Shown: positions 942 to 48,494 of the stretch, one piece after another
How the letters are laid out: each line of letters begins with the position of its first letter
How positions within the stretch are numbered: the stretch's first letter is position 1
Source of the DNA: Escherichia phage FCWL1
Sequence record: PP558327
Strand: one strand, 5' to 3'
DNA length: 49,336 bases
The notes under the pieces: model-generated
Databases searched by the model: none
What the model was told of the DNA's origin: nothing
Seen by the model: the letters and a program-made list of their open reading frames with translations, nothing else
Translations under genes and position numbers: made by a program

Positions 942-1127
942 ATGTCACGTCGCATCACTAAAGACCTTAAAGTCCTGAACAAAGAAAACGTAGTTAAAAT
1001 TCTGGTTATATGGGGATACAGCGAAGAATCAGCAAGACAAAAGGTCGAGGCTGGTTATGACCTGGCTATCAAGGCAATGCCTAACGACGACGCTAAAGGT
1101 ATTGCAAATTACGTATCTTTCTTCTAA
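942..1127 (+). CDS. hypothetical small protein (61 aa)
   Basis: ATG at 942 preceded by GAGGAAAAAC RBS and the conserved leader CATCGAAACGAG; track ORF 894 start is upstream of the RBS. Confidence 0.45.
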   Translation: MSRRITKDLKVLNKENVVKILVIWGYSEESARQKVEAGYDLAIKAMPNDDAKGIANYVSFF

Positions 1128-1168
1128 CACGAATTGTTAAAACCTGATCGGGGTATCTTGCTATAGTT
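1125..1168 (+). promoter_or_regulatory. promoter cassette: degenerate palindrome TAACA-CGAAT-TGTTA, GC hairpin, TATAGT
   Basis: Operator-like palindrome, about 22-23 bp spacer containing GGGGTA/TACCCC hairpin, TATAGT hexamer, conserved leader, RBS, ATG 1206. Confidence 0.5.
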
Positions 1169-1205
1169 ACCCCATCGAAACGAGATACCAATCAGAGGAA
1201 TAACC

Positions 1206-1436
1206 ATGTCAATCGTCAAGAACCAGCAAGCCATCGATTCAACCAACAACAACCGCTTTGCTATTTTCATCACTCGCGACAACAAGCGTTTTGCGGTCAA
1301 GGTAGTACCGGGTGGATACAATACATACATGGAAGGTAACGGAAAATGGGTTCGGTGTGACAACCTCTCAAACTTCCTGGTCTGGAATGCAGAACTCCAG
1401 GGATTTGATGATATCAGCACTTTAATTGAGGAGTAA
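1206..1436 (+). CDS. hypothetical protein (76 aa)
   Basis: ORF with strong RBS (CAGAGGAAT) downstream of promoter cassette. Confidence 0.55.
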   Translation: MSIVKNQQAIDSTNNNRFAIFITRDNKRFAVKVVPGGYNTYMEGNGKWVRCDNLSNFLVWNAELQGFDDISTLIEE

Positions 1437-1441
1437 TAATC

Positions 1442-1669
1442 ATGCCACGTTACAGCAACCTAACTCAACTAACCCGCGTCAACGGGCACATGATCCCGGC
1501 TAAATCTACTCACTGCGCGAAAGGCGCAAAGCACGGATTATATTTCAAGTGGCGCGGCCAATGGAACTTCACAGCTGTGAATAATTTCTACATGCGAGTT
1601 CCAGGTGATGACCCGCAATCAGTAGTAGAAAACTCAATCGGTGACAACAAGATCGAGGTACTAAAATGA
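1442..1669 (+). CDS. hypothetical protein (75 aa)
   Basis: ORF tightly packed after 1206-1436; RBS GAGGAG upstream. Confidence 0.5.
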   Translation: MPRYSNLTQLTRVNGHMIPAKSTHCAKGAKHGLYFKWRGQWNFTAVNNFYMRVPGDDPQSVVENSIGDNKIEVLK

Positions 1670-1776
1670 ACTTTAATACAGTAGCGCTATGGTCTGCCGT
1701 CTGGTTCTTCTGCATGGGTCACGTCATGGTCGGCATCGTGGTAATGCTTCTCCTGCGTGCGGGGGCGTTCGAATGA
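1666..1776 (+). CDS. possible small hydrophobic peptide (36 aa, MNFNTVALWSAVWFFCMGHVMVGIVVMLLLRAGAFE)
   Basis: ATGA overlap with preceding stop; single predicted TM segment; below the 60-aa track threshold. Confidence 0.25.
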   Translation: MNFNTVALWSAVWFFCMGHVMVGIVVMLLLRAGAFE

Positions 1777-1946
1777 TGCGTATATTGATTTGCATGATGG
1801 CTGCTGTCGCCCTGACTATCCTGGTAGTGTCCGGCTGCGGCGAGGTCAAAGAGCGATGCCATGAAACCGGGAGCCAGGTTACTACTTTCGTGATGGTTGG
1901 CAACGTATTGCTACCAATCACATCAAATGAAATCACTTGCGAATAG
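1773..1946 (+). CDS. putative small lipoprotein (57 aa)
   Basis: N-terminus MMRILICMMAAVALTILVVSGC has signal-peptide character and a lipobox-like VSGC; overlaps the stop of the 1666 peptide. Confidence 0.35.
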   Translation: MMRILICMMAAVALTILVVSGCGEVKERCHETGSQVTTFVMVGNVLLPITSNEITCE

Positions 1947-1955
1947 GATGTTAAA

Positions 1956-2147
1956 ATGGCTGATTTTATGCACCAAATGATTGCAGTATTCAAATGTAGT
2001 GATGACCAGGAAGTTAAAGAGTGCTTTACCGTTGACAAGCCTTATAACGCATCGCTAACCAGCTTCGGGAACATCTCATTGCTTGATGATAATGGCGACC
2101 CCTGGATATTCGACGAAGACACCGATTGCTTCGAAATTAAAGAATAG
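1956..2147 (+). CDS. hypothetical acidic small protein (63 aa)
   Basis: ORF with upstream GGATG context; acidic C-terminus. Confidence 0.4.
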   Translation: MADFMHQMIAVFKCSDDQEVKECFTVDKPYNASLTSFGNISLLDDNGDPWIFDEDTDCFEIKE

Positions 2148-2187
2148 CACTTTTTGTTAAAAATAAATTCCGGGGTTGCGATATAGT
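2145..2187 (+). promoter_or_regulatory. promoter cassette (TAGCA-CTTTT-TGTTA, hairpin, TATAGT), first of a tandem pair
   Basis: Palindrome, 22-bp spacer with GGGGTT/AACCCC hairpin enclosing TATAGT; followed immediately by a second cassette. Confidence 0.5.
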
Positions 2188-2214
2188 AACCCCATCGACA
2201 ACGAACGAGGACGA

Positions 2215-2258
2215 TAGCCACGAATTGCTAAAACGTCGATGGGGTGATTTGATATAGT
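2215..2258 (+). promoter_or_regulatory. promoter cassette (TAGCCA-CGAAT-TGCTA, hairpin, TATAGT), second of tandem pair
   Basis: Same architecture as 2145-2187; conserved leader CATCGACAACGAAGAGAG then ATG 2291. Confidence 0.5.
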
Positions 2259-2290
2259 TACCTCATCGACAACGAAGAGAGAAAATCTAA

Positions 2291-3357: not shown

Positions 3358-3506
3358 TGGCTGCGTGGGTCTTGATTATCTTGATGAGTACCGGTCCGGA
3401 TCACGTATACATGGAAAGTCAGCAATCATGCAACAAGGCTCGGGAGGTGATTTCAGAGAACAAGCCGTTCGGATACGAAGTAAAAACGATGTGCGTTAAA
3501 CGATAG
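3357..3506 (+). CDS. possible small protein (49 aa)
   Basis: TAATG overlap with upstream stop; hydrophobic N-terminus MAAWVLIILMS; stop codon overlaps palindrome at 3504. Confidence 0.25.
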   Translation: MAAWVLIILMSTGPDHVYMESQQSCNKAREVISENKPFGYEVKTMCVKR

Positions 3507-3546
3507 CACGAATTGCTAAACCTTCCGCAAGGCCATTTGATATAGT
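3504..3546 (+). promoter_or_regulatory. promoter cassette (TAGCA-CGAAT-TGCTA, hairpin, TATAGT)
   Basis: Perfect palindrome, 22-bp spacer with AAGGCC/GGCCTT hairpin, TATAGT, leader with CCAATCAGAGGAAT RBS. Confidence 0.55.
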
Positions 3547-4953: not shown

Positions 4954-5172
4954 ATGGCTACTATCATAACCGCAGAAGATGCGGCGCGTGACGCAGTGGA
5001 AGGAATGCGCCCAAATACCTCCAGAATCGCCCACTACTACAAGTTTGAGGTGTCGGCAGTGCAATTGGTCCACGAAATTTTAAGGCTCCCACAAGTCGAT
5101 TCAGCGCGAGTAGTGACGTGCTTAAAAAATTATTTTTGCATCACTATTAAAACGAATAGCACGAATTGCTAA
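4954..5172 (+). CDS. hypothetical protein (72 aa), weak
   Basis: ORF without clear RBS; ends just before promoter cassette at 5157. Confidence 0.3.
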   Translation: MATIITAEDAARDAVEGMRPNTSRIAHYYKFEVSAVQLVHEILRLPQVDSARVVTCLKNYFCITIKTNSTNC

Positions 5173-5199
5173 AACTTGCTCAAGGGTATTTGATAGAAT
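5157..5199 (+). promoter_or_regulatory. promoter cassette (TAGCA-CGAAT-TGCTA, hairpin, TAGAAT)
   Basis: Perfect palindrome, 22-bp spacer, AAGGG/CCCTT hairpin, TAGAAT, CCAATCAGAGGAAT RBS. Confidence 0.55.
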
Positions 5200-5958: not shown

Positions 5959-5959
5959 C

Positions 5960-8267: not shown

Positions 8268-8287
8268 ATGCCTGCAATATGGTAAAA

Positions 8288-8302
8288 TAGCACTAAATGT
8301 TA
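8288..8302. promoter_or_regulatory. palindrome TAGCA-CTAAA-TGTTA immediately upstream of terminase small subunit RBS
   Basis: Operator-like palindrome between terminator and RBS. Confidence 0.4.
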
Positions 8303-8320
8303 AACAAAGAGGATGGATTT

Positions 8321-8883: not shown

Positions 8884-10452
8884 ATGATTCAATGGGAAGA
8901 ACTCGACGCAACTCAGAAGTTGGCGATCAAAAAAATGAGCGAGGCCAATTTCGAAAAAATGATTCGGATCTGGTTTCAGCTTATGCAGGCTCAGCAGTTC
9001 CAGCCTAACTGGCATCACCTTTACCTATGTCACGAAGTGGAGGAAATTATTGCAGGCCGACGCGGTAACACTATCTTTAACGTCACGCCAGGCTCCGGTA
9101 AAACTGAGGTGTTCTCAATTCACCTTCCGGTGTACGCAATGCTCAAGTGTAAAAAGGTGAGAAACCTTAACGTGTCGTTTGCCGACAGCTTAGTTAAGCG
9201 TAACAGTAAGCGTGTCCGTGAGATTATCAGCAGCAACGAATTTCAAGAGCTATGGCCTTGCAAGTTCGGTACATCGAAAGACGAGGAGATGCAGGTTCTT
9301 AATGAAGACGGAAAGGTTTGGTTTGAGCTAATCTCCGCAGCGGCTGGTGGTCGTATTACTGGTTCGCGTGGTGGGTACATGATGCCAGGATTCTCAGGTA
9401 TGGTAATGCTCGACGATATCGACAAGCCTGATGATATGTTCTCAAAGGTTAAGCGTGAGCGTACGCACATGCTATTGAAAAACACCATTCGATCCCGTCG
9501 TATGCATAACGAAACGCCAATTATCGCAATTCAGCAGCGACTACATGCTCAGGATTCAACCTGGTTCATGATGAATGGCGGGATGGGTATTGAGTTTGAC
9601 CAAATCTCAATCCCGGCGCTGGTGACGGAAGAATACGGAAAGACACTTCCTGATTGGTTGCAGCCTTACTTTGAGCGTGATGTTTTATCGTCTGAGTATG
9701 TAGAATTGGATGGCGTTAAGCATTACTCTTTTTGGCCCAGCAAGGAAAGCGTTCACGACCTGTTAGCCTTGCGAGAAGCTGATCAGTACACCTTTGACTC
9801 TCAGTATCAGCAGAAGCCGATCGCGCTTGGTGGCTCCGTGTTTAACTCGGAGTGGTGGACCTATTACGGCAGCAGCCTTGACGCTGACGAGCCAGATCCT
9901 GGTAAATATGATTACCGTTTTATCACAGCAGATACCGCTCAGAAGACGGGTGAGCTAAACGACTACACGGTCTTTTGTTTATGGGGTAAGAAAAACGATA
10001 AGGTTTACTTTATCGACGGCATTCGCGGCAAGTGGGAAGCGCCTGATATGGAGAAACAATTTACCGCCTTTGTGAATCAGGCATGGAGGCACAATAAATC
10101 AATGGGCGTGCTTCGCAAAATCTACGTGGAAGATAAAGCGAGCGGAACGGGCTTGATTCAGAACTTAAGGAAAAAGACCCCGATCTCAATTACACCATTG
10201 CAACGTAACAAAGATAAAGTTACCCGAGCGATGGATGCGCAGCCAGTTATTAAGGCCGGGCGTGTAGTTCTTCCAGAAGAGCACCCTATGCTTGCGGAAA
10301 TCATCGCAGAGCATAGCGCTTTCACATATGATGACACACATCCGCATGATGACATTGTCGATAACTTCATGGATGCGGCGAACATTGAATTGCTGACTAT
10401 TGACGATCCTATTGAGCGAATGAAGCGACTTGCCGGGATGGTTAAGCGGTAA
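8884..10452 (+). CDS. terminase large subunit
   Basis: 522 aa; ATPase Walker A-like VTPGSGKTE, Walker B MVMLDDIDKPDD; C-terminal nuclease-like acidic residues; position before portal. Confidence 0.85.
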   Translation: MIQWEELDATQKLAIKKMSEANFEKMIRIWFQLMQAQQFQPNWHHLYLCHEVEEIIAGRRGNTIFNVTPGSGKTEVFSIHLPVYAMLKCKKVRNLNVSFADSLVKRNSKRVREIISSNEFQELWPCKFGTSKDEEMQVLNEDGKVWFELISAAAGGRITGSRGGYMMPGFSGMVMLDDIDKPDDMFSKVKRERTHMLLKNTIRSRRMHNETPIIAIQQRLHAQDSTWFMMNGGMGIEFDQISIPALVTEEYGKTLPDWLQPYFERDVLSSEYVELDGVKHYSFWPSKESVHDLLALREADQYTFDSQYQQKPIALGGSVFNSEWWTYYGSSLDADEPDPGKYDYRFITADTAQKTGELNDYTVFCLWGKKNDKVYFIDGIRGKWEAPDMEKQFTAFVNQAWRHNKSMGVLRKIYVEDKASGTGLIQNLRKKTPISITPLQRNKDKVTRAMDAQPVIKAGRVVLPEEHPMLAEIIAEHSAFTYDDTHPHDDIVDNFMDAANIELLTIDDPIERMKRLAGMVKR

Positions 10453-10506: not shown

Positions 10507-11790
10507 ATGAAAATTGTTAAACATGATGGATATAACGATATCTTTAACGGCGGCGCGGACGGTTCACCAAAGCCATTTTTTATGTCAGACGCATCATATC
10601 ACGTAGGATCTTTCTATAACGATAACGCAACAGCGAAGCGAATTGTAGATGTGATCCCGGAAGAAATGGTGACGGCTGGATTTAAAATTTCAGGCGTTAA
10701 GGATGAAAAAGAGTTCAAATCTCTGTGGGATAGTTACAAAATTGATCCTAGCTTGGTTGATGCTCTTTGCTGGGCGCGCTTATACGGTGGGGCGGCTATT
10801 GTAGCAATCATTAATGACAACAGAATGCTAACCAGTCCAGTTAAGCCTGGGGCTAAACTTGAAGGTGTGCGTGTTTACGATAGGTTCGCAATTACAATCG
10901 AAAAAAGAGTAACCAATGCGCGATCGCCTCGCTATGGTGAGCCTGAGATCTATAAGGTGTCACCTGGTGACAATATTCAACCTTACTTAATCCACCACAC
11001 AAGAATTTTCATTGCTGATGGTGAGAGAGTTACCCCTCAGATGAGGAAGCAGAATCAGGGGTGGGGTGCTTCAGTTTTGAATAAGTCACTGATTGATGCA
11101 ATCTGCGACTACGACTATTGCGAATCACTTGCGACTCAGATCCTTCGGCGTAAGCAACAGGCGGTATGGAAGGTCAAAGGTCTTGCCGAAATGTGCGATG
11201 ATGACGATGCTCAGTATGCGGCGCGTCTGCGACTTGCTCAGGTTGATGATAACTCCGGCGTAGGCCGCGCGATCGGTATCGATGCTGAGACGGAAGAATA
11301 CGATGTTCTAAACTCTGATATCAGCGGAGTACCTGAGTTCTTATCAAGCAAGATGGATCGTATTGTTTCCCTTTCCGGGATTCATGAGATTATCATCAAA
11401 AATAAGAACGTAGGCGGCGTATCAGCGAGCCAAAACACGGCGCTTGAGACTTTCTATAAGTTGGTAGATCGTAAGCGTGAGGAAGATTACAGGCCGCTTC
11501 TTGAGTTCTTGCTGCCGTTCATTGTTGACGAGCAAGAGTGGTCGATCGAGTTCGAGCCTTTATCTGTTCCGAGCAAGAAAGAGGAATCAGAGATCACGAA
11601 GAATAACGTTGAGTCGGTTACGAAAGCTATCACTGAGCAAATCATCGATCTGGAAGAGGCTCGCGATACGTTGCGCTCTATCGCCCCTGAGTTTAAGCTA
11701 AAGGACGGTAATAACATCAACATTCGCGAACCGGAAGAGCCAACCGAACCGGAGCCGGGATTAGGGGAGAAGTTAGAAGATGAAAATTAA
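10507..11790 (+). CDS. portal protein
   Basis: 427 aa, immediately downstream of terminase; acidic C-terminus; RBS GGAGGA. Confidence 0.8.
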   Translation: MKIVKHDGYNDIFNGGADGSPKPFFMSDASYHVGSFYNDNATAKRIVDVIPEEMVTAGFKISGVKDEKEFKSLWDSYKIDPSLVDALCWARLYGGAAIVAIINDNRMLTSPVKPGAKLEGVRVYDRFAITIEKRVTNARSPRYGEPEIYKVSPGDNIQPYLIHHTRIFIADGERVTPQMRKQNQGWGASVLNKSLIDAICDYDYCESLATQILRRKQQAVWKVKGLAEMCDDDDAQYAARLRLAQVDDNSGVGRAIGIDAETEEYDVLNSDISGVPEFLSSKMDRIVSLSGIHEIIIKNKNVGGVSASQNTALETFYKLVDRKREEDYRPLLEFLLPFIVDEQEWSIEFEPLSVPSKKEESEITKNNVESVTKAITEQIIDLEEARDTLRSIAPEFKLKDGNNINIREPEEPTEPEPGLGEKLEDEN

Positions 11791-14974: not shown

Positions 14975-14995
14975 CATAAAAACACTTTGACGCTT

Positions 14996-15010
14996 TAACA
15001 AAAAGTGCTA
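14996..15010. promoter_or_regulatory. palindrome TAACA-AAAAG-TGCTA overlapping TTGACG...TATTAT promoter-like elements
   Basis: Operator-like palindrome lies in spacer/-10 of a putative promoter upstream of capsid gene. Confidence 0.35.
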
Positions 15011-15018
15011 TTATTGAA

Positions 15019-35543: not shown

Positions 35544-35586
35544 ATAGCACTTTTTGCTAAAAACGTTTACTGTATGCCGTGTATTA
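35544..35586 (+). promoter_or_regulatory. promoter cassette (TAGCA-CTTTT-TGCTA, 9-bp hairpin, TATTAT)
   Basis: Perfect palindrome, 22-bp spacer, AACGTTTAC/GTAAACGTT hairpin enclosing TATTAT; upstream of helicase. Confidence 0.5.
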
Positions 35587-35624
35587 TAGCGTAAACGTTA
35601 CAACGATTCAAAGGATTAATAGAC

Positions 35625-37643: not shown

Positions 37644-38056
37644 TTACAGACAAAGGTGATTATTTAGAATTTTACGAGAGAGATCCAAGCGACACTCGAA
37701 AGGAGGACGCTCATCAGGTGGATTGTGTATCCTGGCTGAAATACAATTTTCCTCACCTTCTATTTTGGCACACTGTCAATGAAGGTGAAAAAACAATCAC
37801 ATCGGCGCTCAGGGATGAGCAGGCCGGATTACTTAAAGGCGTGTCAGACTTCGTTATCCTGATTGGTGTTAACTCACGATACCCGTTTGCAGCAATCGAA
37901 CTTAAGCGGGTTAATAAGTCAGGCAAAGGAAAGGCGTCACCAGTCAGCGACAAGCAAAGGGAATTTCTCCAAAAGGTCCGGGAGCGTGGCGGCTTCTCTG
38001 CCGTCGCATACGGATTCGGGCAATTCAAGATCGCAATTTACGAAATGATGAAATAG
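37640..38056 (+). CDS. VRR-NUC domain nuclease
   Basis: PD-(D/E)XK-type motif GVSDFVILIG...AAIELKR; ATGA overlap with helicase. Confidence 0.65.
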   Translation: MITDKGDYLEFYERDPSDTRKEDAHQVDCVSWLKYNFPHLLFWHTVNEGEKTITSALRDEQAGLLKGVSDFVILIGVNSRYPFAAIELKRVNKSGKGKASPVSDKQREFLQKVRERGGFSAVAYGFGQFKIAIYEMMK

Positions 38057-38099
38057 CACTTTTTGTTAAAACTGCCGGGATGGAATCTGGCATTATTAT
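38054..38099 (+). promoter_or_regulatory. promoter cassette (TAGCA-CTTTT-TGTTA, hairpin, -10-like ATTATT/TATTAT)
   Basis: Palindrome overlaps VRR-NUC stop; GCC hairpin; leader AAAACGAGAGGAAT. Confidence 0.45.
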
Positions 38100-38837: not shown

Positions 38838-39085
38838 TGAACGAGAAAATGATTCCGGTTAAGTTAACTGATCAAGGTTTATGGCTGCTTTATCGAGCTA
38901 CCTGCTGCGAAATCATGGAACAAAACGGATTGACGCAGGATGTTATTGGTTGCGATCTGTGGGAGTTCACTAGCTCTCTTGATATGTCTTTCGATGAGAT
39001 AAAAAATGAATACATAGAGAATTGGCCTTCAATCATACAGAGAGACGTAGAGGAACTTAAAGCTGATATGATCGTTCAGCACTAA
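38834..39085 (+). CDS. hypothetical protein (83 aa)
   Basis: ATGA overlap with dam stop; RBS GAGGAAAG. Confidence 0.45.
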   Translation: MMNEKMIPVKLTDQGLWLLYRATCCEIMEQNGLTQDVIGCDLWEFTSSLDMSFDEIKNEYIENWPSIIQRDVEELKADMIVQH

Positions 39086-39119
39086 TTGCTAAAACTACCC
39101 GGCGAAAGTCGGGTATAGT
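39077..39119 (+). promoter_or_regulatory. promoter cassette (CAGCA-CTAAT-TGCTA, hairpin, TATAGT)
   Basis: 22-bp spacer with CCCGGCGAAAGTCGGG hairpin; leader CATCGAGACGAAATGAGGAAT. Confidence 0.5.
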
Positions 39120-39361: not shown

Positions 39362-39611
39362 ACGAGAGGTTTGGGATCACGCGAAGGAGTGCGGAATCTC
39401 AGACGATATAGCACTAATAGCAAAATATTTCGATATAAAGGATGTTAGCATCATCTCAAACGGAAAGATTTCATTTATGGAAGATATGCCGAGAAAAATG
39501 CATAGAGTGCCAGCCACCCCATCACTTGAATTTTATCGTGAAGAAGGAAAGAGAATTGAGCGAGAACGAAAAACAGCAAAGAACAACAAGTCTTCCAGGC
39601 TTAAACATTAA
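39339..39611 (+). CDS. hypothetical protein (90 aa)
   Basis: Overlapping ORF; weak RBS. Confidence 0.3.
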   Translation: MLIKKQGKREVWDHAKECGISDDIALIAKYFDIKDVSIISNGKISFMEDMPRKMHRVPATPSLEFYREEGKRIERERKTAKNNKSSRLKH

Positions 39612-39921: not shown

Positions 39922-41073
39922 ATGTCACAAGCTAAAATCACTACCGAACAACTTGTCGAAGAGCGCATGAACGGCCTAACACTTCGCGAGATCGCGGAAA
40001 AGTACGGTATGCACATTCGAACTGTTGAAGCTCGCCACGCAAAGTTGGCAAAAGAAGGTCACTTCCACGGTAACGAGCATGTTGCTAAGAACGTACCGGA
40101 AGGATTCATGGTAAAAGGCACATCAACGATGATTCGCGGCGATGGGACCGAGGTGGTGCGCTGGGTTAAGACCGATCAGGACCGTGAGAAGATTGCAGCA
40201 ATGATGGAAGCGGCGCGTATTGCATTCTGTGAAGATCTGCCGCGAGCAAAGCCAACTGAGCTACTAACCTCACAAGGGCTTACTACAGCGATGGGTAAGC
40301 TGGCACTCTATCCGGTATTCGATCTTCATATTGGCGCGCTTGCTCATAAGCATGAATGCGGAGAGAACTATTCTACCGATGTAGCGGAAAAAGTGCTGAG
40401 TGACTTCTTTAATTACGCGATCGATATTGCTCCGAACGCAGAGAAGGCTGTTCTGTTAATCGGCGGTGACTTCCTGCACTCTGACGGACTTGATGCAGTT
40501 ACTCCGGCAAGCGGTCACGTTCTTGATCAGGATTCACGATATGCTAAATTGGTGCATGTAGCGATTCGATCGGTGCGACGAGCTATAGACAAAATGCTGA
40601 CGAAACACAAAGAGGTCGAAGTTCAGGTTATCGAAGGAAACCACGACCAGGCCGGGATGATTTGGTTACGCGCAGCAATGGCAGCATACTATGAAGACGA
40701 GCCGCGAGTATTCGTTGACGTCAGTCCTATGATTCTGCATAAGACTCGTTGGGGAAATACCTTGTTGGGATACACTCACGGGCACACTATGAAAAAGGCA
40801 GACACGCGACTTGCAGCGATGGCAGCAGATTTCCGATCGGATTTCGGCGAGAGCAAGTATGTGTATACTCATAGCGGGCACTGGCATCACCAGACAATCA
40901 CTGAGCACTCGCTAGGTATTGATGAAGTACACGGTCAGTTAGGCGCGAAAGATGCATACGCAGCACGCGGAGGGTGGCGCTCATATCGCCAGGCGGCGGT
41001 AATTGTTTACGATAAGCAGTTTGGTGAAATCGGTCGATTCATCTATCGTCCAGAAATGACAGGATCGCACTAA
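39922..41073 (+). CDS. N-terminal HTH fused to calcineurin-like metallophosphoesterase
   Basis: HTH-like LTLREIAEKYGMHIRTVEARHAKL; phosphoesterase motifs DLHIG, GGDFLHSD, GNHD, GHTM, GHWHH. Confidence 0.6.
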   Translation: MSQAKITTEQLVEERMNGLTLREIAEKYGMHIRTVEARHAKLAKEGHFHGNEHVAKNVPEGFMVKGTSTMIRGDGTEVVRWVKTDQDREKIAAMMEAARIAFCEDLPRAKPTELLTSQGLTTAMGKLALYPVFDLHIGALAHKHECGENYSTDVAEKVLSDFFNYAIDIAPNAEKAVLLIGGDFLHSDGLDAVTPASGHVLDQDSRYAKLVHVAIRSVRRAIDKMLTKHKEVEVQVIEGNHDQAGMIWLRAAMAAYYEDEPRVFVDVSPMILHKTRWGNTLLGYTHGHTMKKADTRLAAMAADFRSDFGESKYVYTHSGHWHHQTITEHSLGIDEVHGQLGAKDAYAARGGWRSYRQAAVIVYDKQFGEIGRFIYRPEMTGSH

Positions 41074-41107
41074 TTGATAAAAACGCCCGAAGGGATTCGG
41101 GTATAGT
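41065..41107 (+). promoter_or_regulatory. promoter cassette (degenerate palindrome, hairpin, TATAGT)
   Basis: 22-bp spacer with CCCGAAGGGATTCGGG hairpin; leader CATCGAAAACAAAGAGGAT. Confidence 0.45.
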
Positions 41108-41313: not shown

Positions 41314-41335
41314 CAATATCATTCATCACCTTACA

Positions 41336-41365
41336 GGCTGGCATGATTTACATGCTAGCCTTTTT
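41336..41365 (+). terminator. intrinsic terminator
   Basis: About 10-bp stem GGCTGGCATG/CATGCTAGCC + T5. Confidence 0.55.
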
Positions 41366-42536: not shown

Positions 42537-42551
42537 GCCTCCTTTTCTTTT
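42520..42551 (+). terminator. terminator hairpin (AGGAGG...CCTCCT) + T-tract after lysis cassette
   Basis: Stem-loop containing spanin stop codon, followed by TTTTCTTTT. Confidence 0.5.
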
Positions 42552-42595
42552 GCGACAAGGAGGGGGAGTTACTCCTTCACGTAAAAAGGTACAAA

Positions 42596-42638
42596 TAGCA
42601 CTTTTTGTTAAAACACCCGATCTCGCATCGGGTATATT
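42596..42638 (+). promoter_or_regulatory. promoter cassette (TAGCA-CTTTT-TGTTA, hairpin, TATATT)
   Basis: 22-bp spacer with CCCGATCTCGCATCGGG hairpin; leader CATCGAAACGAAACG. Confidence 0.5.
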
Positions 42639-42672
42639 TGTTTCATCGAAACGAAACGACCTGAAGGAAAAC

Positions 42673-42891
42673 ATCACGGCTAACAAATTTTTAGTAGTTC
42701 GCGTTTACAATCACTCAAACGGTACTAGCAGTGAGATTCCTACTCTTTACAGTAAAGCTGATGGGTGGACCGAAGAATCAGCGGTAGCTAACGAGAAGAA
42801 GGTTGCTGAGATGTACGGTGACACTTGCGAGTTTGAAGTTCGAGAATATGCAAAACTCACTAACGAGAGTTACATGTGGGCAGATGCATAA
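42673..42891 (+). CDS. hypothetical protein with apparent non-AUG start (ATC/ACG) or start-codon mutation
   Basis: Conserved cassette and GAAGGA SD present but the codon at the expected start position is ATC-ACG; ORF open to 42891. Confidence 0.3.
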   Translation: MTANKFLVVRVYNHSNGTSSEIPTLYSKADGWTEESAVANEKKVAEMYGDTCEFEVREYAKLTNESYMWADA

Positions 42892-42927
42892 AGATTATGC
42901 TCGCTTTCGTTACTGGCCCTCATTGAA

Positions 42928-43362
42928 GTGAGTAACAGACTCAACAACCCTTGCATGCTGCTTCTTCTAGATCTGTTCATATTCTGCGAAGGTTACGACA
43001 AATACACTCGACAGCACATAGCGAAATTTATATACGCCCACAAGGAAAGTGAGCGATTTGCTAAGGCTGCTGGAATGACTCGCCGTGAATTTACAAGCGC
43101 GCTATCTAAGGAGTTTTGCGCTCGTTGCGTGACTGAGGGTTACTTAGATCGCAAGGATGGAGTTTACTGGTGCAAGGGAAAGATTAAGCGCCCGGTAATG
43201 ATGAAGCTGATGTGTATTGATGGCTACAACAATCGGTATACGTGGGAAATGATGCACATTGGAGAGATGAGTGATGAAGATTTGTTTGGCGAACGTAGAA
43301 ACATTGATAGATCGGAACGTCGAATTGTGCGCAAGGCTCCAGCTTACGAAAGAAGAATTTGA
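42928..43362 (+). CDS. hypothetical protein (144 aa)
   Basis: GTG-initiated ORF; basic C-terminus. Confidence 0.4.
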   Translation: MSNRLNNPCMLLLLDLFIFCEGYDKYTRQHIAKFIYAHKESERFAKAAGMTRREFTSALSKEFCARCVTEGYLDRKDGVYWCKGKIKRPVMMKLMCIDGYNNRYTWEMMHIGEMSDEDLFGERRNIDRSERRIVRKAPAYERRI

Positions 43363-44935
43363 ATCAATGTTTAATATTAAGCCAAAACTGAATTACCAAC
43401 AGATTATTGAGATCGCCAATAGCACTGGAGTTAATCCGGTGGCGATCGCAATTCGTGAAAACAGCTATGGTGACTCAGTTTCATTTTGGCAAGATCCGAT
43501 CGATATCAATAGCGGCAACGATAAGTTCCCTCTGATTTCGTTAGGTGGCGATAACCTGGTATTCGAATATGCAAAAGCAAAAGCTGAATCAGTCCAGTTC
43601 CCGGTTTCATCCGCGTATGCTCATTTTATAGGTTGCATCTCAGCCGCGATGCTCGGGAAGTTTTGGGTGCAATATCACGGAGAGGAACAGCCGACCGCGC
43701 TTTACATGGTAATCAGCCAGCCACCATCAACAGGTAAGTCCGCGATTAACTCAGCGGCGATTACACCTATGCGTGCGGAGATTCAGCGACTGAATGAAGA
43801 GCGCAAAAAGGAACGTATTCGTTTAACCAGTCAGCTACGCCAGGTTGAGAAGGAAATCAAGAATGATCCTAAAGGAAACACGACTGCGGCACTATGCGAG
43901 GACAAAGAAAAACTGGAAGAGAAGATCAAAAAGATGGCTGATATTGTTTTTGCTGTATCAGATCCTACACCTGAAGGTCTTGCGAAAGTAGCCGCTGTTC
44001 AGGGCCACTTTTCCGTAATTTCTGATGAGGCAACGGCAATCAATACATTGCTCGGTCTTACGTATGGAGGTTCAGATAAGAAATCTAACAGTGAGCTTAT
44101 TCTTAAGGCGTGGGATAAAAACCATATGGAGGTCGCTCGCTCCAATCAGGACAACAACTTGTCTCTTTGCCCGGTTGGCTCGATCTGCGTAATTGCGCAG
44201 GATGAAACAATCAAAGGTATCATGGACGCAGGCCAACGAGGTATCGGTGTATCTGAGCGCTTCCTGTTAGTTCGCGAGGAACCGCTTTTAGGTACTCGTA
44301 TTCTTTGTGATGAAAATGGTGATGCATTGTATAAAGAAGTCGATCGAGGACTGGTTAGCAAATATTACAGACTCGTTCACAACATCATGAAGGAGGAAAA
44401 CGTTGTTCTCTCTGTAAGCCGTAATGCTATGCGTGAATTAAACCTTGCGCGTCAGGCGATGGAACCGGATTTCGCCGCAGGTGGGAAATACTCTCACTCA
44501 ATGCTACGCGGTCATCTCGGCAAGTTCGATAAGCACGCCTTGCGTATTGCTTCAGTTCTCCACACGATCAAGAATTGGGAGGGTGAATCACCGAACCGTT
44601 CCAACCGTGAGATTGACCTTGAAACAATGCAGGAAGCAATCATGATCTTCAATGAGCTTTCCAGGACTTATCTGTCGTCTGCCAGCGCTGCCGGGTATGC
44701 TGGTGATGAGGCTGAATCTCGTAAGCTGATTGATGTTATCACTGAGATCGCGAAGAAAAACAAAGGCCGCGCACCTATTCATAGCATCGTTGCAAAGTGC
44801 CGGAACGTTACGCCTTTCAACGGTCAACAGAAAGTATCTGAGCGAATCGATAGTCTTCTTATCACGCTCGAAGAGATGAACTACACTTGCCGGATTGATG
44901 ATATTGTTTTCATTAATCCTCGGCTGATGGGTTAA
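43271..44935 (+). CDS. large protein with deviant P-loop (QPPSTGKS), possible NTPase
   Basis: 554 aa; Walker A-like STGKS and hydrophobic-Asp Walker B-like IVFAVSD; start may be the internal ATG near 43367. Confidence 0.4.
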   Translation: MMKICLANVETLIDRNVELCARLQLTKEEFESMFNIKPKLNYQQIIEIANSTGVNPVAIAIRENSYGDSVSFWQDPIDINSGNDKFPLISLGGDNLVFEYAKAKAESVQFPVSSAYAHFIGCISAAMLGKFWVQYHGEEQPTALYMVISQPPSTGKSAINSAAITPMRAEIQRLNEERKKERIRLTSQLRQVEKEIKNDPKGNTTAALCEDKEKLEEKIKKMADIVFAVSDPTPEGLAKVAAVQGHFSVISDEATAINTLLGLTYGGSDKKSNSELILKAWDKNHMEVARSNQDNNLSLCPVGSICVIAQDETIKGIMDAGQRGIGVSERFLLVREEPLLGTRILCDENGDALYKEVDRGLVSKYYRLVHNIMKEENVVLSVSRNAMRELNLARQAMEPDFAAGGKYSHSMLRGHLGKFDKHALRIASVLHTIKNWEGESPNRSNREIDLETMQEAIMIFNELSRTYLSSASAAGYAGDEAESRKLIDVITEIAKKNKGRAPIHSIVAKCRNVTPFNGQQKVSERIDSLLITLEEMNYTCRIDDIVFINPRLMG

Positions 44936-44992
44936 CACAATAAACTCCTTGGTTGACGGTGTAAATGATACACCGCCAATGGTACACGCGTT

Positions 44993-45007
44993 TTGCAAAA
45001 AGTGCTA
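44993..45007. promoter_or_regulatory. palindrome TTGCA-AAAAG-TGCTA abutting start codon of 45012 gene
   Basis: Operator-like site ends 4 nt before ATG; no canonical SD. Confidence 0.4.
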
Positions 45008-45011
45008 TTGG

Positions 45012-45428
45012 ATGAAATCCATCAAACTTAAATGTACTTCCGCAGATAAAATCACAGGATTTGAAGTAAACAACCTGTACAAAGGTCGTGAGCGCTATGA
45101 TGGCACTCGCGAAGTAAAATTAAAATGCGGAAAGTATTTAAAACTTGAAAAGCATGATGAATTACAGATTCACGGATCTGATGAAATCTTCTTCGCGAAG
45201 TTCGCTGAGTTGAAAACAAAGACGCTCAAGTGCACCGGGCTTGACCATCGTAATCCGATGAAAAAATCATTCAAACTTGGCAAGCGTTACCAGGTGGAAA
45301 GCGGTCGCGCTCTCGGCGGCGTAGCTGGTTATATTTTTGATGAGGATGGTTGTCGTTGGACATTGTTTCGCGAAGAGATCGGTTTTAGCATAGCTGACGG
45401 CACAACCTTTGAGGCCAAATACTTATAA
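45012..45428 (+). CDS. protein with two copies of the KxxC repeat domain
   Basis: IKLKCTSADKITGFEVNNLYKG and KTLKCTGLD...KLGKRYQV...YIFDEDG match the 4167/7312/41137 pattern. Confidence 0.45.
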   Translation: MKSIKLKCTSADKITGFEVNNLYKGRERYDGTREVKLKCGKYLKLEKHDELQIHGSDEIFFAKFAELKTKTLKCTGLDHRNPMKKSFKLGKRYQVESGRALGGVAGYIFDEDGCRWTLFREEIGFSIADGTTFEAKYL

Positions 45429-45492
45429 TGCGTTAGCTCCTGATTGGTTATCTTGAATAAGGTCACTTTATCAAATGACCTTACGGCAATAT

Positions 45493-45507
45493 TAACAAAT
45501 CGTGCTA
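45493..45507. promoter_or_regulatory. palindrome TAACA-AATCG-TGCTA abutting ATG 45509
   Basis: Operator-like site ends 1 nt before start codon. Confidence 0.4.
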
Positions 45508-45508
45508 T

Positions 45509-45721
45509 ATGGAACAGGATAATTTCTGGACTCGTTATTTTGCAGCGCTCGATGCCGGGCTTGGTGCGGAATGGTGTATCAAGGTTGCATATAAAGAAAT
45601 TACGCTTGACGACGCGCTAGGGAATATGGATATGGACGCAGAAAGTGAATATAATCCCGACTTCGATATGCCAGGCGATGATACTGGTGATAATGACGAC
45701 GACGATTATATTCCCTGGTAA
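45509..45721 (+). CDS. small highly acidic protein with SSB-tail-like C-terminus (DDDDYIPW)
   Basis: 70 aa, about 30% Asp/Glu; C-terminal DDDDYIPW resembles SSB tip DDDIPF. Confidence 0.45.
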   Translation: MEQDNFWTRYFAALDAGLGAEWCIKVAYKEITLDDALGNMDMDAESEYNPDFDMPGDDTGDNDDDDYIPW

Positions 45722-45724
45722 TAA

Positions 45725-45949
45725 ATGAGCATTAAAGTTGAGAATATCATCAAGCATCTTAACGCAAAAGGCCGTGTAGTTATCAAGATGGATAAGTCTT
45801 CCGGTTTTATTTCAATGACGGTAACTAAGACGCGTAACGGAAATAGCGTTATCGGAAGTGTACCGGGATCTCGACTGATAAATGCAACAGATGCGGATGT
45901 TCGCGCAACGCTTGAGGATAACTCGATTTACATTAATTCATGGAGCTAA
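45725..45949 (+). CDS. hypothetical protein (74 aa)
   Basis: ORF 3 nt after previous stop. Confidence 0.4.
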   Translation: MSIKVENIIKHLNAKGRVVIKMDKSSGFISMTVTKTRNGNSVIGSVPGSRLINATDADVRATLEDNSIYINSWS

Positions 45950-46011
45950 TTTTAATTCCTTTGTTTTGTTTGGTGTGTGAGTAATATACCTTACTCACTA
46001 TTTATTGTCTT

Positions 46012-46026
46012 TAGCAATTAGTGCTA
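46012..46026. promoter_or_regulatory. palindrome TAGCA-ATTAG-TGCTA abutting ATG 46027
   Basis: Perfect half-sites; preceded by 8-bp hairpin GTGAGTAA/TTACTCAC. Confidence 0.4.
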
Positions 46027-46347
46027 ATGAACCACACTTATAAAATCACAACGAAGTCACCGAAGATTAACGGAAGCACGGTTGCGGCGCTTAATAACGC
46101 GGCAGCAATCCACGAAAAAAACATCATGGAGCGCGTGAAGGCGGCAGTAGGCCGATTCTATGGAATCAACGCCGACATTGCTGACAGCAAGCGACTGTTC
46201 AAATACGTGCCAGGTCATCCATATAGCCGGATGATTGATATTAAGCATGATAAAGAACTGGTTCGAATAGGTTCGCTTAGCATTGACGAGTTTGACCATA
46301 GCATTAACCTTGTGACGGCGTATCAAACCTGGGACGGTAAAAAATGA
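46027..46347 (+). CDS. hypothetical protein (106 aa)
   Basis: ATG immediately after palindrome. Confidence 0.4.
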   Translation: MNHTYKITTKSPKINGSTVAALNNAAAIHEKNIMERVKAAVGRFYGINADIADSKRLFKYVPGHPYSRMIDIKHDKELVRIGSLSIDEFDHSINLVTAYQTWDGKK

Positions 46348-46503
46348 TTTATATTCACACTTTCTATACTGGCAAATTTAACAGCGTAAAAAATGTTCGC
46401 GTTTACGATAGTCACCAAAAAGCAATGATGCAGAAAGTAGTTCTAGGTGGAACAATCAAGGAGTGCCAAGTAATTTCCGAGTACTGATATTCCCCCTAAC
46501 CAG

Positions 46504-46875
46504 ATGCTTAAACAATTCGTAGACCTGGACTTCTCAGCAAGCACAGCAATCCAGACTGACGAGAAAGAGAACGTAGCGATCGAGAACATTGCGCGCAAGA
46601 TTTACAACAAGCAAGAGAAGGCAGTGAGAGCCGCTCTAAGCGCTTATTACGGTGTAAGTGATGCAATGGAGTGCGTGAACCGAGTAACGCGCGTGGCGGA
46701 CCATTCTGGCGCGTCTCGTTTCGTAGATAACGATACTGGAGAGATGATAATCCAGCTTAACAATCCATCAATGCGCACTGAACTTGGCAATATTGCATTG
46801 TGGGGTGTGGCTAACTACTCAATCACCGTCAACTCCTGCATTGCGGGTCGCGTCAAGGAGGCATTATATGAGTGA
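46504..46875 (+). CDS. hypothetical protein (123 aa)
   Basis: ORF; weak resemblance to 46027 product. Confidence 0.4.
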   Translation: MLKQFVDLDFSASTAIQTDEKENVAIENIARKIYNKQEKAVRAALSAYYGVSDAMECVNRVTRVADHSGASRFVDNDTGEMIIQLNNPSMRTELGNIALWGVANYSITVNSCIAGRVKEALYE

Positions 46876-47068
46876 TAATATTTACCGCGTGGTTGCGATC
46901 TCACGCAGGACGCAAAAGAGCGTAGTTGCCTACATGGGAAATGGCGCAATTGAGGCAACAGACGCATTCGAGCTACTGAAGAATAACGAAGGATTTATGA
47001 ACACGTTCCGCGTTAGACTTGAGCGTCTTGAACCTGTTATCATTGATGAAGCGAGAAAGCTATCCTGA
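46868..47068 (+). CDS. hypothetical protein (66 aa)
   Basis: ATG overlapping upstream stop. Confidence 0.35.
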   Translation: MSDNIYRVVAISRRTQKSVVAYMGNGAIEATDAFELLKNNEGFMNTFRVRLERLEPVIIDEARKLS

Positions 47069-47127
47069 GGTGATTGCCTCGTTTTCTGTTGATGGGAGAA
47101 CTATAGCAGCCCTCCCGCATTTTCGTT

Positions 47128-47142
47128 TAGCAAAAAGTGCTA
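47128..47142. promoter_or_regulatory. palindrome TAGCA-AAAAG-TGCTA abutting ATG 47144
   Basis: Same sequence as site at 105-119. Confidence 0.4.
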
Positions 47143-47143
47143 T

Positions 47144-47329
47144 ATGAAAACAAAATTAGTTCATAAATCAGAAATCAAGATCGGCGATACCGTGATTCAC
47201 AACGGAGAGCTTAAAACTGTTGGCAAGGAGTCAATAACCAACGATGAATTTATGGGTCTGTTATTGTTCGGGGACTCCTATCGACTTGGTTACAAAATGG
47301 TTGAGCTTGTTGAAGATGTAAAATTCTAA
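47144..47329 (+). CDS. hypothetical protein (61 aa)
   Basis: ATG 1 nt after palindrome. Confidence 0.4.
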   Translation: MKTKLVHKSEIKIGDTVIHNGELKTVGKESITNDEFMGLLLFGDSYRLGYKMVELVEDVKF

Positions 47330-47357
47330 TTACTGGCCTGTTAAACCGATCGAGTTT

Positions 47358-47372
47358 TAACAAAAAATGCTA
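47358..47372. promoter_or_regulatory. palindrome TAACA-AAAAA-TGCTA containing ATG 47367
   Basis: Start codon lies inside the palindrome. Confidence 0.35.
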
Positions 47373-47726
47373 TCAGCAATCGCTTTGAAAAATCCACGAG
47401 GATATAAGGAACGTATCAGCTTCGTTTTGGCAGACTTGCCGCCCAGCTTGTTTTGCTGTGCAGAGTACCCGTCAGGCAGGCTTACAGGTTTTCTCTCGGG
47501 CATGACAAAATCGATGGAACCAAAATTTGAATGTGCCGTGCAATGCATTAGCGTTAGCACCGACAGCTTCACGAATCAATCAGTGTATGAGATCTACCTT
47601 ATTGATGGTGGGTACTTCGCTACTGACAATCAGCAAAATCAGATCGGCGTTTTCCGCTCAATGAATGGATGGGATCGCTTCCTGACCAATAACGGGCAGA
47701 CGGTATTCAAAGAGGTAACGAAATGA
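47367..47726 (+). CDS. hypothetical protein (119 aa)
   Basis: ORF; overlaps downstream gene by ATGA. Confidence 0.4.
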   Translation: MLSAIALKNPRGYKERISFVLADLPPSLFCCAEYPSGRLTGFLSGMTKSMEPKFECAVQCISVSTDSFTNQSVYEIYLIDGGYFATDNQQNQIGVFRSMNGWDRFLTNNGQTVFKEVTK

Positions 47727-48271
47727 AATTAATCTGGTCGCTATTTGACGGTTCCGGTCTTGCAGGTCATGAACTGGCTAAGCAAGGTCATAAGGTGATG
47801 TGCTTCAACTTTGACGGAGCCGATCACGGAGATTACGAAAAGTACAATGCCAGAGTGGAGCATCCGAACATTGAGTATGTGAACGTGTTCATTGATGAAA
47901 CGTTCGAACGTGATGCTATCGCTGGCGTGTATGGCAAGCCGGATTTCATTATGGCTTTCCCGCCGTGCACTGACCTGGCTGTTAGTGGTGCGCGACACTT
48001 TGCCAGCAAGCGTGAACGCGATCCGTTATTCCAGGAGAAGGCTGTCGCTAGTGCCCGGATTGCTGCGAACATTGGAGATAGCCTGGGCGTGACTTACATC
48101 ATTGAGAATCCGGTGAGCGCCCTGTCGTCTGCGTGGAGAAAACCAAATCACTCCTTCAATCCCTGGGAGTATGGCGGCTATCTTCCTGAGAATGACTCAC
48201 ACCCCTGGTTCCCGATGTATATTGCGCCGCGAGATGCTTACCCGAAGAAAACTTGTCTTTGGGACCTCTGA
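47723..48271 (+). CDS. truncated DNA cytosine-5 methyltransferase-like protein (182 aa)
   Basis: C5-MTase-like motif I LFDGSGLAG (FxGxG), motif IV-like FPPCTDLAVSG (PC), motif VI-like IIENP (ENV); too short to contain a target-recognition domain. Confidence 0.45.
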   Translation: MKLIWSLFDGSGLAGHELAKQGHKVMCFNFDGADHGDYEKYNARVEHPNIEYVNVFIDETFERDAIAGVYGKPDFIMAFPPCTDLAVSGARHFASKRERDPLFQEKAVASARIAANIGDSLGVTYIIENPVSALSSAWRKPNHSFNPWEYGGYLPENDSHPWFPMYIAPRDAYPKKTCLWDL

Positions 48272-48289
48272 TGCGTGATTCCTCTGATT

Positions 48290-48430
48290 GCTATAGTGAC
48301 TCTAGACAGCTAGACAAATGTTACACGGCTTAAAATTGGCTCGCAGGCATTGACAGCTCTACATCGCAATGTCACAATGGCAATTGTTGACACATTATGA
48401 CACCATTTACACACGAATAGACAAAGAGGG
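48290..48430. promoter_or_regulatory. third control region: tandem TTGACA promoter-like elements, imperfect palindrome TGTCACAATGGCAATTGTTGACA, TTACACAC/ATAGACA motifs
   Basis: TTGACA-17bp-CACAAT and second TTGACA; motifs shared with the 170-370 and 29750-30170 regions. Confidence 0.4.
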
Positions 48431-48451
48431 TATATTCGCTGATAGGTGAAA

Positions 48452-48494
48452 TAGCACTTTTTGTTAAAGCCCGGTCGAGCGGATCGGGTATTAT
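48452..48494 (+). promoter_or_regulatory. promoter cassette (TAGCA-CTTTT-TGTTA, hairpin, TATTAT)
   Basis: 22-bp spacer with CCCGGTCGAGCGGATCGGG hairpin; RBS CAGAGGAAT; gene at 48527. Confidence 0.5.

Follow-up and report, generated by a model that had tools for sequence, protein, structure and literature searches.

The window analysed here, a stretch of 49,336 nucleotides from Escherichia phage FCWL1 (sequence record PP558327), is that of a T1-like siphophage of the family Drexlerviridae, genus Tunavirus, and it carries a repeated promoter cassette in which an 18-bp box precedes a −10-like hexamer at a fixed distance. Judging from sequence and geometry, we read these cassettes as class II sigma70 promoters that depend on a host activator of the MarA/SoxS/Rob group, a reading that we hold with about even confidence. 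An initial annotation of this DNA had described twelve such cassettes, and at all twelve sites we found the box (ATAGCACnnnTTGyTAAA), the fixed gap and the −10-like hexamer. The gap measures 22 nt from the end of the 15-bp palindrome within the box, equivalent to 20 nt from the 18-mer. The cassettes are strongly nonrandom: TAGCA-N5-TGCTA occurs 7 times in the window against 0.04 expected, and the relaxed form TARCA-N5-TGYTA 17 times against 0.21 expected.

Geometry and conservation of the cassette

The twelve reported copies are part of a larger family that occupies both strands. The window contains 13 cassettes on the plus strand, 5 complete cassettes on the minus strand and one truncated copy at 47356, together with five boxes that lack a −10 (at 103, 8287, 14994, 18756 and 34002). 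We compared seven genomes, namely, those of phiD2-2, T1, TLS, Rtp, Klebsiella phage KP36, Cronobacter phage ESP2949-1 and “Vibrio” phage Vc1, allowing no more than 3 box mismatches and requiring a −10, and recovered 93 cassettes, against fewer than one in shuffled sequence. Of the 107 perfect boxes in the phage genomes, 87 had a −10 within 12 to 30 nt, and in 73 of those 87 the −10 lay at exactly 20 nt from the 15-mer. The palindrome and its spacing, for which a search of related phages had been proposed, are thus both kept, and the box is invariant across these seven Drexlerviridae genomes of different genera. The record of phiD2-2 (OR861627.1), which has the natural gene arrangement, holds 20 perfect boxes. 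At its cassettes the box lies on the strand of the downstream gene, as it does in the six other genomes, and nearly all boxes in the natural genome point in the direction of the downstream gene and lie 70 to 80 nt 5′ of its start codon.

A sigma70 −35/−10 scan called no −35 at 16 to 18 nt at any cassette, in agreement with the earlier description of promoters lacking this element. The −10 hexamers comprise TATAGT, TATTAT, CATAAT and similar sequences, and extended −10 elements are present in only 38 of the 93 cassettes. Past the hexamer, C occurs at +6 in 60 and A at +7 in 74 of the 93 cassettes, and this conserved CA, 7 nt past the hexamer, is the probable start site. The centre of the box falls at about −41, the class II activator position that the initial annotation had assigned to it. 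A median of 31 nt separates the hexamer from the start codon, and the leader of approximately 25 nt is rich in A (43%). The leader was less uniform than first described: just 7 of the 93 cassettes have CATCGAAACGA in exact form, and what is kept is the C at +6, the A at +7 and the A-rich composition. The proposal that the cassettes form a phage promoter class was borne out, and the genes that they drive are nonstructural.

The ends of the upstream genes are closely fitted to the cassettes. In many cases the TAG within the ATAGCAC box doubles as the stop codon of the gene upstream (phiD2-2 record positions 9426-9428, 10447-10449, 11734-11736, 14760-14762, 46356-46358 and 47385-47387), and in other genomes a TAA or TGA stop lies immediately 5′ of the box, with the cassette occupying the entire intergenic space of about 75 bp.

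The initial annotation could not match the repeat to a named system; it had in fact already been published. The 2024 re-annotation of phage TLS described a 21-nt direct repeat, aaATAGCACnnnTTGnTAAAA, which is also present in T1, Rtp and Rogue1, reported only three sigma70-like promoters, and guessed that the repeat functions as a stoperator, an enhancer site or an UP element (PMC11447400). The cassette box is the same element in the same orientation. It matches the consensus aaATAGCACnnnTTGnTAAAA, is codirectional with the genes and lies approximately 76 nt before their start codons, a relation that is partly broken in the window by inverted coding sequences (see below). The TLS paper does not link the repeat to a −10, to hairpins or to the marbox, and the curated T1 record does not annotate the cassettes as promoters and annotates almost no promoters at all. 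We found no papers that map T1 transcripts or tie the repeat to a known regulator. What is new here is the complete promoter-module reading, the two hairpin geometries described next and the agreement in detail with marbox promoters of the host, both class II and class I.

Hairpins accompany the cassettes well beyond chance. In 98 cassettes from six genomes, scored from the box end to +20, the mean z was −2.9 against shuffles, with 68% below −2, and the best helix score was 18.9 compared with 12.4 in shuffles. The hairpin of the initial annotation is therefore real, but it is not always confined to the 22-bp spacer: the helix axes form two sharp classes, a spacer type ending at −13 (about 26 cassettes) and a type whose arms flank the −10, which lies in the loop (about 30). 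Spacer-type hairpins are GC rich, with the A-run of the box before them and the T-rich −10 after them. A pattern scan called terminator-like structures at 38073-38092, 39096-39115, 42615-42633 and 48469-48489 on the plus strand and at 41101-41086 on the minus strand, and in the T1 and KP36 records several spacer-type hairpins are annotated as rho-independent terminators overlapping cassettes. The −10-flanking hairpins gave no terminator-like calls except at the junction between pir and the primase gene, where all genomes have a strong terminator with flanking-type geometry and a full T-run. Orthologous cassettes show paired changes, as in the polynucleotide kinase gene (pnk) cassettes of T1 (CTTGCTCAAGGGC / GCCCTT..TGAG..AGCAA) and TLS (CTAAATCAGGGGC / GTCCCTAGTTTAG). 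In both hairpin types the promoter's own predicted start lies within or past the 3′ arm, and only RNA reading through from upstream has the whole hairpin. We suggest that the hairpins insulate transcription units, by termination and perhaps processing, and take no part in promoter recognition. A spacer hairpin with the −10 as its T-rich tail would make an intrinsic, often bidirectional, terminator or insulator; for the flanking-type arms, processing, pausing or effects at the DNA level may be envisaged.

We consider it very improbable that the box is recognised by unaided RNA polymerase, serving as an UP element or as an atypical −35, or that the hairpin itself makes the promoter through a cruciform or in the manner of phage N4. 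The hairpins are indeed statistically real, the flanks of the box are A/T rich, TTGCTA or TTGTTA resembles TTGACA, and UP elements were mentioned by the TLS authors (PMC11447400). However, the gap from TTGYTA to the hexamer is 22 bp, beyond the sigma70 range, and we rejected TTGYTA as a −35 because no −35/−10 pair exists at any cassette. Extrusion of the spacer hairpin to shorten this distance was likewise rejected, since it would cut the gap to about 6 bp. An UP element (A/T only, at about −40 to −60, bound by the alpha C-terminal domain) was rejected on account of the un-UP-like invariant GCA, G13 and GAA-type centres and of an A-tract placed at −35 to −33 instead of upstream of −38. Pfam searches of the 55 nonstructural proteins identified no RNA polymerase, sigma factor, MotA or AsiA; with two hairpin positions and stems of variable sequence, this led us to reject an N4-type promoter. 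The hairpin-dependent or cruciform promoter raised by the initial annotation also fits poorly with the finding that half of the hairpins look like intrinsic terminators using the −10 as their T-tract.

Two better-known systems resemble the cassettes in part. The middle promoters of phage T4 have a MotA box centred at −30 and require AsiA (“sigma appropriation”); they likewise carry an activator box, which contains TGCT, in place of the −35 at many promoters. We rejected a MotA-dependent promoter because the box of the phage studied here is centred near −41, rather than at −30, and because the phage has neither a MotA nor an AsiA homologue. The PeSL promoter-stem-loop cassettes of T4-type phages and the RNase III hairpins in the early intergenic regions of T7 are also short repeated modules of a promoter and a stem-loop between small early genes, but they differ in sequence and promoter type and belong to unrelated phages.

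Correspondence with host marbox promoters

The box corresponds to the marbox of enterobacterial stress promoters, for which the published consensus is 5′-GCANNWWNTGNNAAA-3′ (PMC12052159) and an older form is AYnGCACnnWnnRYYAAAY (PMC3709825). Perfect matches to GCANNWWNTGNNAAA number 18 in the window against 0.90 expected and 20 in the natural record, and the six fully scanned genomes hold 8 to 20 each, against 0.8 to 1.6 in shuffles. Positions that were not forced by the search pattern also fit the older consensus, with A1 in 67, Y2 in 70, C7 in 68, Y14 in 70 and Y15 in 69 of 73 boxes.

The agreement extends to promoter geometry. In class II marbox promoters the box is in the forward orientation, overlaps the −35 and lies near −41 (PMC12052159, PMC10268841, PMC8811837); a recognisable −35 is lacking and the −10 is canonical (PMC10268841). 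The prototype is micF of E. coli, whose activator site lies at about −41 (PMC8811837). As read from the E. coli K-12 genome, the micF promoter is GCACTGAATGTCAAA-N20-TAGAAT, with the RNA start 8 nt later, and the phage cassette is GCACGAATTGCTAAA-N20-TATAGT, with its conserved C at +6 and A at +7. Both have the same 20-nt distance from the 15-mer to a canonical −10 and neither has a −35, and the phage box shares its consensus and forward orientation with the class II mar/sox/rob promoters that respond to MarA, SoxS, Rob and RamA. The phage promoters differ from these host promoters in that they belong to a virulent phage, number about 20 in 49 kb and have the spacer or the −10 wrapped in a hairpin. 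When the phage 18-mer was scanned against host regions, the known marbox was the best match in marO (2 mismatches) and in micF (3 mismatches). In rob-creA, a known MarA target region, the best match had 3 mismatches and is possibly the mapped marbox; the chance expectation per region ranged from 8e-4 to 1e-2.

Conservation within the box is uneven in the way expected of a marbox. Marbox recognition involves two unequal elements, CAC(G/T) and, seven bases on, AAA (PMC8811837). Across the 93 cassettes, G4, C5, A6, G13 and A16 to A18 are essentially invariant, changes are tolerated at T2, C7, T12 and T15, and position 14 alternates between C and T. Mismatches number 0 to 2 at each of A3 to A6 (9 at T2), compared with 9 or 10 at T12 and T15. 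Although the 5-N5-5 palindrome is present, its left half-site is fixed, three of the five positions on the right are loose, and the conserved A-run reaches past it. This asymmetry argues for the marbox pattern of two unequal elements and against a dyad, and so does the strict direction of the boxes relative to the genes, since a true dyad needs none.

Boxes without a −10 of their own provide further parallels. At 103-120 a box lies in reverse (minus-strand) orientation, centred at about −61 of a sigma70-type promoter with a real −35 (TTGTCA-17-TAGAAT, 136-164, plus strand), and the same arrangement is found in T1. The E. coli mar promoter, the class I example, has a reverse marbox centred at −62 of TTGACT-17-TATTAT; the phage copy, with its good −35, mirrors this layout but, unlike mar, has been seen in the two Tunavirus genomes only. 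The plus-strand late promoter of the major capsid gene (TTGACG-16-TATTAT, 14987-15014) has its spacer filled by a reverse box at 14994-15011, an arrangement conserved in T1, TLS and Vc1. Its core, TAACAAAAAGTGCTATTAT, shares 16 of 19 positions with that of the E. coli rob promoter, CAGCAAAAAATGCTATTAT. The rob gene is a known MarA target, and in 2006 Schneiders and Levy reportedly described its repression by way of a marbox situated between the promoter hexamers. A terminator hairpin, AAGCCGTGA...TCACGGCTTTTTT, lies directly downstream of the capsid promoter (14987-15050), with the predicted start in its 5′ arm.

Other boxes overlap start sites. The plus-strand box at 34002-34019 covers the start site of a minus-strand promoter (TTGCAA-17-TAAAAT, 34053-34025) that naturally drives the side tail fibre gene, and another, at 8287-8304 on the plus strand, lies immediately 5′ of the small terminase start, where it is overlapped by an extended −10-like element of the TGn-TAAAAT form (TGgTAAAAT, 8283-8288). 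Boxes placed over core elements of late promoters are possible repression sites for those promoters. A further reverse box (18756-18773, minus strand) lies between the terminator of the major tail gene and the next gene.

Taken as host-activated class II promoters, the cassettes would be early or middle promoters, each a compact module of about 75 bp that begins where the preceding gene ends, at its stop codon or overlapping it. In order, the module would consist of the 18-bp box, exactly 20 nt, a sigma70 −10, a start at the CA 7 nt on, the A-rich leader, a Shine-Dalgarno sequence and ATG. Centred near −41 and pointing with transcription, the box would replace the −35. The protein bound to it would be a monomer supplied by the host, a member of the MarA/SoxS/Rob family (RamA in Klebsiella), with constitutive Rob the most plausible one in unstressed cells; this protein would bring in host RNA polymerase and so stand in for −35 recognition. 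Early in infection it may also hold down sigma70 late promoters through the boxes that lie over them (capsid, side fibre and terminase). Consistent with a host activity, one of the cassettes, the T1 dam promoter, shows activity both in cell extract and in cells free of phage (PMC6737242). A phage-encoded MarA-like protein was rejected as the activator: phmmer --max searches of all six-frame open reading frames, with the E. coli MarA and Rob sequences as queries, gave a best E value of 0.8 to 0.9, and the Pfam searches identified no HTH_18/AraC domain.

Several points weigh against dependence on these host activators. MarA and SoxS are scarce without stress, and much of the cellular Rob is held inactive. 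The phage box is far more uniform than host marboxes, with a conserved ATA prefix, T8 and T12, and it holds a 5-N5-5 palindrome suited to a helix-turn-helix (HTH) dimer. Among the IMG/VR matches listed, all 120 cassette stretches lie on T1-like contigs of 41 to 53 kb, a distribution that equals that of the phage regulator Pir. The same cassette occurs in records labelled Vibrio phage Vc1 and Campylobacter phage A16a, host labels that are themselves doubtful; the A16a record is flagged UNVERIFIED and has 44% GC. Class II activation can also be modest, at about twofold for RamA at micF (PMC8811837). The phage itself encodes an HTH protein suited to the palindrome, Pir; with reporters, the dam cassette was activated by Pir and the pir promoter, which bears a box at +22, was repressed (PMC6737242). 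Our literature searches found no transcript 5′ ends for T1-like phages and no work linking the marbox, Rob, MarA or SoxS to them.

Somewhat short of even confidence, we extend the host-activator reading to the whole early programme of the Drexlerviridae, which may be built on host multidrug-resistance and stress activators (Rob, MarA and SoxS, with RamA in Klebsiella). The early genes would be fired by some 20 class II marboxes close to the consensus, the class I copy and the reverse boxes would tie late promoters to the same factor, and the boxes, once replicated into the thousands, could titrate an activator in limited supply, lowering early and releasing late promoters.

Pir and other candidate readers of the box

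The main alternative, a coherent but less likely one, is that the box is the operator of the phage's own Pir (T1 Orf23), a Cro/C2-like HTH dimer that would bind TAGCA-N5-TGCTA at −42. Pir would be made first from its own sigma70 promoter, would then switch on some 20 cassette promoters by activating them as lambda cI does at PRM, and would repress itself through the box copy at +22. Of the two HTH candidates in the initial annotation, the open reading frame at 35052-35531 is indeed the homologue of T1 Pir, an experimentally shown regulator (PMC6737242). The coding sequence of this Cro-like protein lies at 35079-35531 on the plus strand of the window, where it has been flipped from its natural minus strand. 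We rejected the second, at 39922-41073, as a regulator; it has no Pfam match at an E value of ≤0.01, and its T1 homologue is annotated as an SbcD-like exonuclease.

Four T1 promoters responded to Pir when assayed with reporters: those of hol and dam were activated, and those of pir and recE were repressed (PMC6737242). Structure prediction gave a model (predicted local distance difference test score [pLDDT], 82) with a single Cro-like HTH and without the double HTH of MarA, which matched Cro proteins at a template modelling (TM) score of about 0.72, and Pfam returned a weak P22_Cro match. The half-site centres of the palindrome are 10 bp apart. The canonical sigma70 promoter of pir (TTGAAT-17-TATAAT, 35583-35611, minus strand) has its box at about +22 of the transcript, and both the −35/−10 promoter and the box, at +21 to +24, are conserved in five genomes. 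Pir and the box co-occur in every Drexlerviridae genome examined.

Against these points stands the conservation of the box, which appears to lack dyad symmetry: AGCA on the left does not vary, changes occur on the right at T12, Y14 and T15, and the flanks differ (A/ATA versus AAA(A)). In addition, the sites are strictly directional relative to transcription. The recognition helix of Pir varies by genus (SNQTVQGW, NLKTVWGW, TPQAVEEW, SIQVVQQW and CVRLTNAY), but the box does not; operator and helix do not change together, the helix differing in six genera in which the box is identical. The dam cassette works without Pir (PMC6737242), and Pir also alters the hol and recE promoters, whose reporter fragments have no box. 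A search for a motif common to the four T1 promoters that respond to Pir turned up nothing other than the box, which the hol and recE fragments do not contain. The T1 holin promoter, which lacks a box, is Pir responsive. Pir as the reader would also leave the exact marbox identity and the micF spacing as coincidence. Lambda cI, acting at OR2 on PRM, offers a likeness, in that a phage HTH protein at −42 is combined with autorepression; however, lambda operators are dyad symmetric and diverge with their repressors, whereas the phage box is asymmetric and invariant while Pir diverges. The dedicated dimeric regulator proposed by the initial annotation is doubtful for the same reasons, namely, the asymmetric conservation of the box, its match to the host marbox and its constancy while the recognition helix of Pir diverges. 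The host-factor and Pir models could nevertheless coexist.

Two observations concern the pir locus itself. The helicase cassette and the pir promoter are divergent (35544-35611), with their −10s overlapping on opposite strands (TATTAT/TATAAT). The box consequently falls within the pir leader and makes a built-in toggle between the two transcripts, an arrangement conserved in T1, TLS, Rtp and KP36. Residues 1 to 40 of Pir (35079-35200) include a near-invariant N-terminal motif, STGEIDKRxINGNNGTRRGKDKKxRKR, that is predicted to be disordered (pLDDT, about 50); it is far better conserved than the recognition helix and may contact DNA or RNA polymerase.

The TLS authors' suggestion of a stoperator (PMC11447400) would make the box mainly a silencing site in the sense of mycobacteriophage L5, with a repressor at more than 20 oriented sites blocking both initiation and elongation genome-wide, for example in a T1 carrier or lysogen-like state. 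A stable T1 carrier state has been reported (PMC6737242), and some boxes do cover the spacer or the start site of late promoters, with another in the leader of pir. We nevertheless judge this explanation improbable. The spacing of 20 nt, kept in 73 of 87 boxes, and the cassettes without a −35 are the signature of an activator site and not of a roadblock; only Pir is conserved as a candidate repressor, an Orf65-type regulator being absent from the phage; and cassettes silenced in this way could fire only by means of an extended −10, which 38 of 93 possess.

Window arrangement, individual sites and biological significance

Block by block, the window is about 99.9 to 100% identical to Escherichia phage phiD2-2 by BLAST, but it is not in the natural arrangement and has been artificially rearranged. 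Each coding sequence on the minus strand of the phiD2-2 record is reverse-complemented in place in the window, exactly from start to stop, with the DNA between flipped coding sequences retained in its original orientation, and some units have been moved, including GP16, the GP20-21 block and the GP34/35 intergenic spacer. The unnatural arrangement spans the whole window (for example, 32476-33981, 34082-35002, 35079-35531, 42549-48271, 894-1127, 2214-2294 and 48287-49336). Because T1 and its relatives have a natural two-strand gene layout, the apparent one-strand layout of the window is artificial. As a consequence of the in-place flips, cassettes of natural minus-strand genes are now detached from their genes and lie on the minus strand. 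The artificial junctions also account for the box variants TAACA at 1125 and TAGCCAC at 2215, both of which are ATAGCAC in the natural genome, so that the TAACA listed in the initial annotation as a palindrome variant is a junction artefact, and the block move makes the tandem pair at 2145 and 2215 absent from nature. Cassettes are found at block junctions of the window, and such modules could be recombination points.

Among the plus-strand cassettes, the copy at 1124-1167 (−10, TATAGT) has GGGGTA/TACCCC arms around the −10, and the artificial junction changed the first 4 nt of its box. The cassette at 2144-2187 has a perfect box, ATAGCACTTTTTGTTAAA-N20-TATAGT, with arms flanking the −10, and is followed by the displaced cassette at 2214-2258, whose natural site is upstream of GP35 (record position 14762) and whose junction yields ATAGCCAC. 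At 2777-2820 the box is degenerate (TAAGAACGAATTGTTAAA-N20-TATAAT), the T1 orthologue having a perfect 15-mer, and at 3503-3546 a perfect box precedes TGaTATAGT, with AAGGCCA/TGGCCTT arms around the −10. Upstream of the polynucleotide kinase gene (5156-5199), the −10 TAGAAT lies in the loop of a long imperfect hairpin. The helicase cassette (35544-35587) has a perfect 15-bp palindrome and overlaps the divergent pir promoter, and the dam cassette (38053-38096) has a terminator-like spacer hairpin with CATTATTAT. At 39076-39119 the hairpin CCCGGCgaaaGTCGGG, also called terminator-like, extends up to the −10 TATAGT, and at 39408-39451 there is a weak cassette with 2 box mismatches and the −10 TAGCAT. 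The cassette at 41064-41107 (ATCGCACTAATTGATAAA) has the hairpin CCCGAAgggaTTCGGG, which received its terminator-like call on the minus strand. That at 48451-48494 combines a spacer hairpin, called terminator-like, with the −10 TATTAT. The remaining one, at 42595-42638, lies within a flipped block, its natural strand being the minus strand; the annotated coding sequence at 42549-42892 (record positions 1515-1856) encloses the full cassette, with box, hairpin, −10 and leader, and is probably misannotated, with its true start downstream of the cassette.

On the minus strand, the cassette at 44965-45008 is the natural promoter cassette of the second helicase gene, left in place in unflipped intergenic DNA when the gene was flipped. 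The others are at 45465-45508 (TGaTAAAGT), 45984-46027 (−10 TATATT, at 21 nt), 47100-47143 (a perfect box with TGcTATAGT) and 49208-49251 (3 box mismatches and the −10 TATGAT). The box at 47356-47373 belongs to a split cassette, cut by the artificial removal of the adjacent coding sequence.

The noncoding regions hold other repeats. A second repeat, TGTAAY-N3-TGTCTA, occurs at 146-160, 276-290, 29755-29769 and 29898-29912 and, on the minus strand, at 30118-30132 and 48311-48325. The four perfect copies are confined to the two large noncoding regions, of which one is the divergent early control region and the other lies upstream of recE, and one copy coincides in part with the spacer and −10 of the 136-164 promoter. 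The repeat may serve as an iteron of an origin, or it may be the true operator of Pir or of some other regulator. Both of these regions also contain AT-rich palindromic repeats (TATATATAGATA and relatives; 200-275 and 29841-29889), perhaps marking an origin, a pac site or a DNA-bending region. A strong terminator, AGGCTGGCATGATTTACATGCTAGCCTTTTT, lies at 41335-41361 between the small gene past the cassette at 41064 and the holin gene, and a sigma70-like promoter, that of the holin gene, comes after it.

T1 is one of the original seven T phages, and its transcription programme has never been worked out. The class II marbox reading would explain how about 50 early genes are expressed without a phage polymerase or sigma factor. 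If Pir is instead the reader, the cassettes would be the Pir regulon and an example of lambda-cI-like activation in a virulent phage. If host factors are involved, phage susceptibility would be tied to the clinical multidrug-resistance regulon, which would be relevant to phage therapy with Webervirus on Klebsiella and Tunavirus on E. coli and to phage-antibiotic synergy. Were the early programme as a whole to run on these activators, the efficiency of infection would depend on the state of the mar/sox/rob/ram regulon, and exposure to bile salts, salicylate or oxidants, like MarA or RamA overproduction in drug-resistant mutants, would make cells better hosts.

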